A stretch of DNA of 7,182 nt. Origin: Pseudomonas phage 17897. The translations under genes and the position numbers were made by a program. The DNA lies in sequence record OR621025.1. One strand, 5' to 3'. Every line of letters starts with the position of its first letter. Position 1 is the first letter of the stretch. The notes beneath the pieces are model-generated. The model was given only the letters and a program-made list of their open reading frames with translations. It searched no databases and had not been told where the DNA came from. Of this stretch, positions 1-7,182 are shown in pieces.

Positions 1-12
1 TTCGCATAATGT
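1..12. repeat. Terminal direct repeat copy 1: TTCGCATAATGT. It matches the XerC-binding arm plus the first 3 nt of the central region of proteobacterial dif sites (...TTCGCATAA|TGTATA...).
   Basis: The window has an identical 12-mer at 7171-7182. From memory, Xanthomonas inovirus attP cores read TATACATTATGCGAA, the reverse complement of TTCGCATAATGTATA, and the Pseudomonas dif XerC arm reads GATTCGCATAA. Confidence 0.7.
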
Positions 13-115
13 GCAGACGTTACGTTAGGCGCAGCCCGACCGAGGGGAGAGTCACCAGTCCGGAGAATCGCTCAGCGTCCGGACTGGTGATTTACACGTA
101 ACGTCCGTTATGCGA
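2..115 (+). other. Long nested imperfect hairpin (cruciform-capable). The pairings are 2-9 with 108-115 (tcgcataa/ttatgcga) and 16-25 with 96-105 (gacgttacgt/acgtaacgtc). An asymmetric 6-nt/2-nt internal loop lies between them. There is an inner perfect 13-bp inverted repeat, 52-64 with 78-90.
   Basis: Reverse-complement matches were verified base by base. In the packaged plus-strand ssDNA this would fold into a stem whose base is a dif-like XerC-arm duplex. Confidence 0.7.
52..90. repeat. Perfect 13-bp inverted repeat TCACCAGTCCGGA / TCCGGACTGGTGA with a 13-nt loop. It is the inner stem of the junction hairpin.
   Basis: Seen directly in the sequence. Confidence 0.9.
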
Positions 116-124
116 TGCCGCTTT

Positions 125-248
125 GGTACCGTTGCAGGATCCTGCAGAACGACCTGGTCGAAAATATTGGTACCATTTTTCGGTGGCAGTGGTACCATTT
201 CCGTCGAGCTCGAGCACGACCTGGTCGAGAATACGGTACCAAAAGGAG
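125..248 (+). promoter_or_regulatory. Iteron or operator-like array immediately upstream of the 254 gene. Four GGTACC hexamers lie at 125, 169, 191 and 235, spaced 44, 22 and 44 bp apart (about 4, 2 and 4 helical turns). There is a 14-bp perfect palindrome TGCAGGATCCTGCA (133-146). Two 26-bp direct repeats, ACGACCTGGTCGARAATAYGGTACCA (149-175 and 217-241), each contain the palindrome CGACC-T-GGTCG. A 10-bp palindrome TCGAGCTCGA lies at 204-213. The RBS AAGGAG is at 243-248.
   Basis: The repeats and palindromes were counted by hand. The helical phasing of the GGTACC copies is the notable point. This is a candidate repressor or initiator binding array, or an origin. Confidence 0.6.
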
Positions 249-253
249 CCGCC

Positions 254-514
254 ATGCTTGTCAAACTCCCCGATGAATCCCCCGACTTCGTAGAGAAACT
301 CAAGGAACAGACCGGTGCGACCACGGCTGCCGGTGCCTATCGGTTCGCTGCTGAGCGGTACGGGTCGCTGACCTATCAGCTCAAGCAAGCCATGGATGAA
401 CTGGCGAGGTTGCAGACCCGGTGCAACGTCCAGCAGCAGATCATCGACAACGCCCGCGCCTCTGCCTCTTCGCTGCTTGACCACGTCGCCCAAGGCGATC
501 TTCTCCAGGGCTGA
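254..514 (+). CDS. Hypothetical 86-aa protein. It has a possible ribbon-helix-helix-like N-terminus ([19 protein letters not shown]...) followed by a helical, coiled-coil-like C-terminus.
   Basis: ATG at 254 follows AAGGAG with a 5-nt spacer. The longer track ORF (110..514) would run through the repeat array and is unlikely. The stop is TGA at 512-514. Confidence 0.6.
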
Positions 515-1018: not shown

Positions 1019-1372
1019 CTAGCGAAGAGCCTCTTGCTCGTACCCGAACAGCACTCCTTTCAGGGCTATCCGTGCTTGATTCCTGATCTCCGCCGGCAGG
1101 GCTTCGAATCTCCGCAATATCGGACGCATGTCGTCAGATATCAGTAGTTCGCTCTCGTCCATCAAGAGTTCGTCTGTGGTCACGCCCAGCACCTTGGCCA
1201 TGGCCAGGGCTTTGTCTGCGGACGGCATTCCATGGCCCGCTTCGTAGCCCGTATAGCTGGACTTGCTCACGCCTGCGGCCTCGTACACCTGCTGTTGTGT
1301 CAAGCCTCGGGCGGCCCGAAATTTTTTCAGGTTTGCTGCAAGGGTCATTTGTCGCTCTTTGAGTGTTTTCAT
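1019..1372 (-). CDS. XRE-family (Cro/C1-type) helix-turn-helix transcriptional repressor, 117 aa. The stop is fixed at 1019. The preferred start is the ATG giving MKTLKERQMTLAANLKKFRAARGLTQQQVYEAAGVSKSSYTGYEAG... In-frame alternatives lie upstream: ATG at 1459 (MDKGHH..., AGGA 2-3 nt upstream) and TTG at 1474 (the track start).
   Basis: Classic HTH_XRE signature (GLTQQQV.EAAGVS...Y...E). It is divergent from the Rep gene, as in phage immunity regions. The 29-aa upstream extension is low-complexity with a lower GC3, and it overlaps a good rightward promoter (-10 CATAAT at 1457-1462). No SD precedes the 1372 ATG, so the transcript may be leaderless or weakly initiated. Confidence 0.8.
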   Translation of the reverse strand: MKTLKERQMTLAANLKKFRAARGLTQQQVYEAAGVSKSSYTGYEAGHGMPSADKALAMAKVLGVTTDELLMDESELLISDDMRPILRRFEALPAEIRNQARIALKGVLFGYEQEALR

Positions 1373-1432
1373 GACTGGGTCAGCGTAGGTGCTGGCTGTT
1401 TGTACAGTTCCAGAATCCTGTGCATTTTCCCC

Positions 1433-1462
1433 TTGATTCTTGTGATGACCCTTGTCCATAAT
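1433..1462 (+). promoter_or_regulatory. Candidate rightward promoter for the Rep operon: -35 TTGATT (1433-1438), 18-bp spacer, -10 CATAAT (1457-1462). A tandem TTGATA-TTGACA pair (1486-1497) lies just downstream.
   Basis: Hexamer matches to the sigma70 consensus seen directly. Its position in the divergent repressor/Rep intergenic region is what one expects. Confidence 0.4.
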
Positions 1463-1506
1463 CCTGCCAATCAACTACCGAAATGTTGATATTGACAGGG
1501 ATTTTC

Positions 1507-7170: not shown

Positions 7171-7182
7171 TTCGCATAATGT
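7171..7182. repeat. Terminal direct repeat copy 2: TTCGCATAATGT. A partial extra TTCGCAT lies 9 nt upstream at about 7156-7162.
   Basis: Exact match to nt 1-12. The sequence reads ggTTCGCATctctggcTTCGCATAATGT. Confidence 0.7.

Follow-up and report, generated by a model that had tools for sequence, protein, structure and literature searches.

Introduction

Autoregulatory ribbon-helix-helix (RHH) repressors such as Arc and Mnt of phage P22 and CopG are small proteins that read short palindromic operators over their own promoters with an N-terminal strand; their dimers cooperate on one face of the DNA, and a few strand residues set the specificity. Here we describe a locus with a similar layout in Pf 17897, a dif-integrating inovirus prophage, which we analysed over a window of 7182 nt (the whole stretch of DNA considered; GC 55.6%). 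In this window, an array of four GGTACC sites precedes a gene for an 86-aa protein. Comparison with relatives suggests that the sites are probably the operators of this protein, which would bind them as RHH dimers, pair over 44 bp and repress its own promoter. The locus differs from those of Arc, Mnt and CopG in that a 61-residue C-terminal helix takes the place of the compact RHH end, that the four sites form two pairs exactly 44 bp apart instead of adjacent half-operators, and that one operator doubles as a TG-extended -10 element; there is also no significant match in sequence or fold.

Two plasmid systems share further traits with the locus. TraM of F and pED208 and Aux2 of pLS20 combine an N-terminal RHH domain with a long oligomerising helix, as proposed here, and occupy several phased sites beside a site of single-strand DNA processing; traM is autoregulated. 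TraM recognises GANTC motifs at intervals of about 12 bp, whereas the sites described here are 8-mers 44 bp apart. The window encodes Rep and Zot but no relaxase, origin of transfer (oriT) or type IV coupling protein and represents a rolling-circle inovirus replicon, and neither TraM nor Aux2 was retrieved by PDB sequence or Foldseek searches with the 86-aa protein. In ParR/parC, ParG and omega of pSM19035, repeat arrays lie upstream of an autorepressing small RHH gene (on both sides of the gene in relatives of our phage), and specificity has diversified between related elements. In contrast to these systems, no partner ATPase gene is evident here, the module is dispensable in close relatives, and the four sites are widely spaced and not contiguous iterons of 7-11 bp.

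The immunity region of CTXphi, with its RstR operators in ig-2, likewise belongs to a dif-integrating inovirus and has a variable repressor/operator specificity. However, RstR-like XRE proteins are helix-turn-helix proteins that act between rstR and rstA, and the XRE module of the window (1019-1474 and the Rep promoter) is separate from the array and does not co-vary with it. Pf 17897 was described as a Pseudomonas aeruginosa inovirus prophage of group 7 without an integrase (Evseev et al. 2023, PMC10675462); the array and the small protein are not discussed there.

Results

The array upstream of the 86-aa protein gene

GGTACC occurs at positions 125-130, 169-174, 191-196 and 235-240, giving a spacing of 44/22/44 bp. 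These four copies, already noted in a preliminary description made from the sequence alone, are the only ones in the 7182 nt (0.95 expected). The hexamers extend to the 8-mers TGGTACCG, TGGTACCA, TGGTACCA and CGGTACCA, and TGGTACCA, like GGTACC, is absent from the rest of the window. The array and the gene behind it consist of the following features.

124-131: putative operator site O1, TGGTACCG (GGTACC core 125-130); in all related arrays, an equivalent site precedes O2 by 44 bp
133-146: spacer palindrome TGCAGGATCCTGCA; variable in loci L001 and L018, absent from other classes
150-160: secondary motif CGACCTGGTCG, copy 1 (ACCWGGT core 152-158); core conserved
168-175: putative operator site O2, TGGTACCA; followed by T, giving TGGTACCAT; covers the -35 position of the predicted O3 promoter
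190-198, plus strand: putative operator site O3, TGGTACCA (190-197) with T198, together TGGTACCAT; predicted TG-extended -10 (TACCAT, 193-198)
204-213: spacer palindrome TCGAGCTCGA; TCGTGCTCGA in L018; a different interval in GCTAGC-type arrays
217-227: secondary motif CGACCTGGTCG, copy 2 (ACCWGGT core 219-225); core conserved
234-241: putative operator site O4, CGGTACCA; in the predicted 5' leader just before the Shine-Dalgarno sequence
243-248, plus strand: Shine-Dalgarno sequence AAGGAG; 5 nt before the ATG
254-514, plus strand: gene of the 86-aa protein, ATG at 254; phrog_8031

The preliminary description had placed TGCAGGATCCTGCA, the two copies of CGACCTGGTCG and TCGAGCTCGA correctly, and the att hairpin (1-115) and the downstream 86-aa open reading frame (ORF; ATG at 254, AAGGAG at 243-248) were also as it reported. 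Its two 26-bp direct repeats are present but of unequal length, measuring 27 nt (149-175) and 26 nt (216-241) with a 1-nt indel between them (ATATTGG versus ATACGG). Because of this indel, a repeat search returned only an ungapped repeat of 21 nt (146-166 and 213-233, 90% identity). The high palindrome density that had been pointed out was borne out by counting: nine palindromic hexamers in a 126-bp stretch are the maximum of the window (mean 1.6, standard deviation 1.5). In first-order Markov simulations, 8 of 4000 runs produced at least four non-overlapping copies of one and the same palindromic hexamer within 120 bp.

Conservation of sites and spacing

We scanned viral contigs for the conserved attP arm and obtained 35 loci. 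Close relatives retained four GGTACC sites at 44/22/44 bp while the interleaved palindromes drifted; in L018, CGACCTGGTCG is replaced by CGTCCAGGGCG and TCGAGCTCGA by TCGTGCTCGA. In phage 36-2 and others, the same att arm is followed by four copies of TGCTAGCA at 44/24/44 bp, and these precede a diverged small protein. A profile search then yielded 78 family members, and the DNA around eight diverged members was fetched. Four copies of TGCTAGCA at 44/24/44 bp were found in seven of the eight loci, and the eighth (L056) carried the variant sites TAGTAGCA, TGCTAGCA and TGCTATCA at the same spacing. Just past the stop codon, two or three further sites with 44-bp spacing were present in five of these eight diverged loci.

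The 26 distinct arrays found before family members, and nine further arrays of a type described below, all consist of four sites with an outer spacing of exactly 44 bp. In total, more than 40 distinct arrays of relatives share this arrangement. The central spacing across related arrays is either 22-24 or 32-34 bp. Two groups one helical turn apart are what a same-face constraint predicts, and the claim that the sites are phased on one face of the helix was thus supported. In a stack of 11 diverged GCTAGC-type arrays, invariant columns were essentially restricted to the four 8-mers. The preliminary description had proposed a multi-site operator or an iteron-type origin, to be abandoned if neither the hexamers nor their spacing were conserved in relatives and no protein bound. 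In this comparison both were conserved and the spacers diverged, in agreement with an operator.

Between the sites, conservation is limited to short motifs. CCWGG or ACCWGGT lies roughly one-third and two-thirds across each 44-bp interval in every specificity class, and TCGA at the centre of the array is also conserved across classes. The interleaved palindromes of the preliminary description recur in relatives as far as their ACCWGGT/CCWGG core is concerned; TGCAGGATCCTGCA and TCGAGCTCGA do not recur. The notion that ACCWGGT represents inside-out GGT/ACC half-sites was dropped, as GCTAGC-type arrays keep ACCWGGT too.

Co-variation of the sites with the small protein

On comparison, the type of site follows the small protein and not Rep or the XRE repressor. 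In L007, Rep and XRE are 99% and 97% identical to those of the window, but the sites are GCTAGC and the small protein is of the MLLTIRD (T4/R6) type. Loci L018, L016 and L001 have GGTACC arrays together with 86-aa proteins 99-100% identical to that of the window; no window-type Rep was detectable in these three loci, and their XRE proteins are merely 39-64% identical. L053 and L056 combine an array with a Rep of the Rep_1 family. An iteron-type origin, which the preliminary description had considered, is contradicted by these findings, since the sites do not follow even a nearly identical Rep. Among the binders it had suggested (XRE, the 86-aa protein and Rep), the 86-aa protein fits by co-variation, whereas Rep and XRE do not.

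A scan for the generic pattern TGNTANCA-N36-TGNTANCA-N14/16-TGNTANCA-N36-TGNTANCA revealed further site classes, each directly upstream of a family member. Matches to this pattern in L066, L068, L069, L071, L080 and L084 were ordinary tandem repeats and were rejected. The classes and the N-terminal strands of their proteins are as follows.

TGGTACCA: strand with K4; window type and nine lineages, L090-L092 and L094-L099 (10/10)
TGCTAGCA: strand MLLTIRD (T4/R6)
TGATATCA, four copies: strand MHLIVRD (H2/I4); L059 and, independently, Pseudomonas sp. KNUC1026 (L085)
TGTTAGCA / TGCTAACA: strand MPTIMIRH; L065
mixed TG[ACG]TA[GCT]CA, spaced 44/22/44: strand MLVNLRD; L067
TGMTAKCA: strand LTLR(D/E); L056, L061 and L087

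As a prospective test, we fetched nine diverged lineages with lysine at strand residue 4 (Lys4), whose proteins are 47-98% identical to the query P0086. All nine had GGTACC arrays, with an outer spacing of 44 bp and a central spacing of 23 or 32-34 bp, and in most of them further sites were present behind the gene.

The third and sixth base pairs of TGNTANCA constitute its only class-variable position, and this position changes with strand residue 4. In at least five classes, residue 4 (with residues 2 and 6) changes alongside base pairs 3/6. An exhaustive profile search (E up to 0.001) resulted in 208 clusters at 50% identity. Among the best-scoring 150 of the 208 clusters, the commonest strand type was the window's own, Lys4 with a residue other than arginine at position 6, and the second was Thr4/Arg6. 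In the wider family (P0079-P0222), Lys4 occurs with non-Arg6 residues (L, P, T, Q and others), and Thr, Gln, Ile, Met or Asn at position 4 occurs with Arg6. The pairing of residues 4 and 6 suggests two alternative ways of reading the 8-mer.

Predicted structure of the 86-aa protein

The 86-aa protein begins with MLVKLPD and is a member of phrog_8031. Proteins of the GGTACC type and of the GCTAGC type both match phrog_8031 at approximately 1e-37; a direct BLASTP comparison between the two types found no similarity. Searches of the family against Pfam, NCBIfam and PADLOC gave nothing above threshold, and PDB sequence searches returned coiled-coil noise only. An Rfam search gave no match.

An AlphaFold monomer model based on an alignment of 43 sequences (pLDDT 89) consists of an extended segment (1-9), a helix (10-20), a loop (21-24) and a second helix (25-85), the latter with a predicted length of 61 residues. 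In the turn that precedes helix 2, T20, G21, T24 and S26 are nearly invariant across the 43 members and agree with the RHH turn, in which a small or hydroxyl residue starts helix 2 and contacts phosphate (G-x-S/T type). At the C-terminus, all classes share a conserved GQGD-hydrophobic tip. In a Foldseek search of the PDB, the top matches were the RHH proteins VapB (VapB11), NikR, FitA-DNA, ParD and PrpA. In a profile alignment by hhalign, the T20-S26 segment fell on helix A, the turn and helix B of Arc, with a score that was not significant; the alignment with CopG was not significant either. The homologue of phage 36-2 was labelled '7NUV-like' by its depositors, where 7NUV denotes the tetramerisation domain of Aux2, the TraM analogue of pLS20. 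An RHH N-terminus followed by a coiled-coil stalk is thus a well-motivated inference, short of demonstrated membership in the RHH family.

Predicted promoter and proposed switch

Site 3 is followed by T in all 26 distinct arrays, and the neighbours of the other sites are mixed. With this T, site 3 reads TGNTANCAT, which corresponds to a TG-extended -10 element (TAnnAT). Arrays with the longer central spacing have a -35-like sequence, TTGACT, TTGCGC or TTGCTC, 16 bp upstream of the -10. In L096 and L099, the only promoter-like site found was TTGACT-16-TACCAT/TACTAT, with TG before the -10 and the -10 within site 3. We also considered a sigma-54 promoter (TGG...GC spacing) and rejected it on visual inspection: GG and GC are spaced by 11 or 13 and not 12, and the GC at -12 is missing in the window type.

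We propose that the 86-aa protein binds as an RHH dimer whose N-terminal two-stranded ribbon (residues 2-6, MLVKLP) enters the major groove at each 8-mer, where residue 4 (Lys in the window) would read the third and sixth base pairs. The 61-residue helix could then form a coiled-coil stalk that links dimers 44 bp apart, O1 with O2 and O3 with O4, on the same face of the helix. A helix of this length measures approximately 9 nm; two such stalks, based on dimers separated by 15 nm (44 bp), could touch at their GQGD tips and form an arch. The extended -10 would be TGGTACCAT (190-198), with transcription starting at about 204-206 and a leader that holds O4 and the Shine-Dalgarno sequence. Protein bound at O2 and O3 would block the promoter, with O1 and O4 contributing cooperativity, and an occupied array would silence the protein's own gene by negative autoregulation. 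The geometry of dimers and tetramers, the start of transcription and the sign of the regulation are what we infer.

Genomic context of the module

The window has a CTXphi-like order of attP hairpin, array, 86-aa gene, XRE repressor, Rep, structural genes and zot. Besides the features listed above it contains the following.

1-115, plus strand: attP hairpin with two inverted dif-like XerCD sites; a long single-stranded DNA hairpin, which ends 9 bp before O1 and lies outside the operator
1019-1474, minus strand: XRE repressor gene; window ORF
1483-2643: G2P-type (G2P/Phage_CRI) Rep gene; window ORF
after Rep: structural genes and zot; window ORFs

The 12-nt repeat TTCGCATAATGT stands at both ends of the window, at the start of the 1-115 region and at 7171-7182; the window ends and 1-115 are a CTXphi-type attP and prophage junction. 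In the published description, the integration site is listed merely as 'intergenic region' (PMC10675462). Relatives are also recorded as circular 'plasmids' of approximately 7 kb in complete P. aeruginosa genomes, which are replicative forms.

The same att arm occurs without array and gene in L012, L015, L020, L023 and L027, and other relatives have different cassettes in the position of the array after the arm. This absence or replacement argues that the module of array and gene is accessory and not a core cis element; judged by these genomes, it is not an origin, a packaging signal or an integration element. In L009, L011, L024 and L030, whose structural genes are near-identical, another cassette begins approximately 30-130 nt past the att arm. 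In this cassette, the 13-bp palindromes CGTTACCGTAACG and CGTTACGGTAACG precede the gene of an unrelated protein of about 117 aa with a basic RGRPRK...AERQRLYRQR motif and a coiled coil. A terminator-like hairpin stands alone at the cassette position in other relatives. At the slot behind att, small regulators are exchanged together with their own sites.

An additional ORF of about 78 aa, whose product has a coiled-coil C-terminus (...LDGEGAELDDLLARLQ...), is located between attP and array in L050, L054, L055, L057, L065, L067 and L087; the window is without it. L088 (NZ_CP124661.1, a circular 'plasmid' of 7695 bp) contains two copies of the array-plus-gene module and duplicated annotations of rep and of small ORFs, and the 6.1 kb that we inspected showed no structural genes. 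The record resembles a mini-element or satellite of these phages, about 3.85 kb long, that has dimerised head to tail.

Downstream of the small gene, positions 537-722 of the window are GC-rich and hairpin-rich and share approximately 85% identity with a segment inside PA0719, a gene of Pf1/Pf4-like prophages that otherwise have no relationship to the genome of the window. The segment stands where relatives have downstream operator sites after the small gene; it could be a cis element common to both or have been left by recombination. A 65-aa ORF (721-918), on the minus strand like the repressor, is located between the small gene and the XRE repressor and matched only PHROGs of unknown function (phrog_20786, E 2e-5).

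The array also misleads gene prediction. An in-frame ORF (110-514) runs through the array into the real 86-aa gene, and partial database entries of 109-135 aa (e.g. P0001 and P0005) contain translated array sequence. The NEU2023 annotation has a 168-aa minus-strand coding sequence over array and gene (L001 1550-2056) and not the 86-aa gene.

Discussion

Our comparison indicates that the sites and their spacing are conserved and that the sites co-vary with the 86-aa protein but not with Rep or XRE. In our view they are most likely operators through which this protein controls its own gene. Several observations weigh against this interpretation or against parts of it. Concerning the promoter, a consensus sigma-70 scan of positions 1-1600 found no promoter in 1-600 and nothing in the array, and the window itself has no -35 element, the -35 position being occupied by O2. 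With no consensus promoter in the window, the predicted promoter therefore rests on the TG-extended -10 and on the relatives. The two or three sites past the stop codon in many relatives are not needed for promoter occlusion. The residue-base code is not strictly one-to-one, since the third base of the 8-mer can be C or A with T4 proteins. As to the fold, the E-values of all RHH matches by Foldseek exceeded 1, the Pfam match to FitA-like_RHH (E 0.026-0.16) was under the cutoff and concerned 3 of 43 members, and the hhalign probability against Arc was 0.8%. The AlphaFold monomer model has no assigned strand, which can be explained by the expectation that the strand pairs only in the dimer. Moreover, the CCWGG/ACCWGGT motifs and the central TCGA are not accounted for by an operator model; a host factor, a hairpin of the leader RNA or secondary contacts of the protein are possible explanations.

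A rather unlikely alternative overlaps with autoregulation rather than excluding it. The array and the downstream sites could be a centromere-like or DNA-pairing site at which a protein complex governs stability, partition or incompatibility of the replicative form, with bridging or partner recruitment through the conserved GQGD-hydrophobic tip and with autoregulation as a by-product. It is likewise conceivable, though rather unlikely, that the locus is a centromere or incompatibility module without an NTPase, in which tetramers loop operator pairs and flanking arrays and control episomal maintenance or mutual exclusion. Arrays do flank the gene in most relatives (four sites upstream, two or three downstream at 44- or 55-bp spacing), and the many DNA specificities are what selection for incompatibility or immunity would predict. 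The conservation of the C-terminal motif in all classes also fits, as does the occurrence of the phage as circular 'plasmids' of about 7 kb and the retention of the module in the record without structural genes that resembles a duplicated mini-element. The layout recalls the RHH centromere-binding proteins ParR, ParG and omega, and a protein-bound array around its own promoter, as in partition loci, is indicated here by comparison (upstream and, in relatives, also downstream of the gene). However, no gene for a ParA/ParM-type NTPase is evident in the window or among the six ORFs scanned against Pfam, and the window has no downstream sites. The module is also absent from close relatives that share the att arm and is hence dispensable. 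The downstream sites, the diversified specificities and the mini-element-like record therefore leave some room, if not much, for a cis-acting role in pairing or incompatibility. If this were true, selection for orthogonality would have made a natural operator-class code of one strand residue per base pair.

The other explanations that we considered place the function in the DNA itself or assign the array to a different protein. Inoviruses need single-stranded DNA signals such as a minus-strand origin and a packaging signal, and the dyad-rich stretch might act as one of them by folding, in the packaged or rolled-off plus strand, into a second long hairpin beside attP. Positions 116-252 fold at -31 kcal/mol (z = -4.85), and 1-252 fold with z = -8.5, but identical palindromes always pair, so such z-scores are expected. 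Mirror complementarity outside the 8-mers (0.43-0.64; ~0.375 by chance) is confined to conserved motif pairs, no convincing compensatory changes were seen outside the palindromes, and the motifs, which are arranged directly in the window type, are inverted in the GCTAGC type. A pure DNA fold would also not predict the co-variation of the sites with the strand residues of the protein, and the region is missing from relatives with the same att arm; we therefore consider this explanation improbable. A XerCD accessory sequence at attP, similar to cer or psi, with the protein shaping a synapse for integration, excision or multimer resolution, would suit the multi-site layout on one face, which could support an architectural complex. 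O1 starts 9 bp past the attP arm, and the array lies within about 15 bp of the arm in L002, L052 and L059. Across the relatives, however, its position beside the XerCD core site is not fixed: the ~78-aa gene splits attP from the array in L050, L054, L055, L057, L065 and L087, the array directly follows zot with no dif-like arm between in L053 and L056 (Rep_1 type), and phages that lack the module have a conserved attP arm, leaving such a role with little probability. Repeated sites near the replication and immunity region could further be iterons of Rep or operators of the RstR-like XRE protein. This is very hard to reconcile with GCTAGC sites beside nearly the same Rep (99%) and XRE (97%) in L007, with GGTACC arrays in genomes that have no detectable window-type Rep and an XRE of 39-64% identity, and with arrays next to a Rep_1-family Rep; an iteron origin would also be an indispensable core, whereas the array is dispensable. 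Finally, the many six-cutter sites within 120 bp (KpnI, BamHI, PstI, SacI and XhoI) resemble a cloning polylinker. We rejected this explanation, together with a chance cluster, as having practically no probability: the prophage is natural, the array is found in dozens of independent prophages, replicative-form plasmids and metagenome contigs, and the simulations produced such clusters in 8 of 4000 cases.

The array is most likely a familiar kind of gene switch, operated by an undescribed protein family that is widespread in filamentous phages and unusually instructive as regards recognition. Autorepression by the 86-aa protein would provide a concrete function for a family of 'unknown function' in PHROGs that has no entry in Pfam or NCBIfam and occurs in filamentous prophages of P. 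aeruginosa that are clinically common. It would also set the module apart from the XRE immunity switch of the phage and from replication. The findings correct the ORF called across the array (110-514) and the wrong-strand annotation of NEU2023. Moreover, the classes would represent a natural series of orthogonal repressor/operator pairs that differ in one symmetric base pair and mainly one residue, and such a series would be useful for studies of RHH recognition and as a source of genetic parts.

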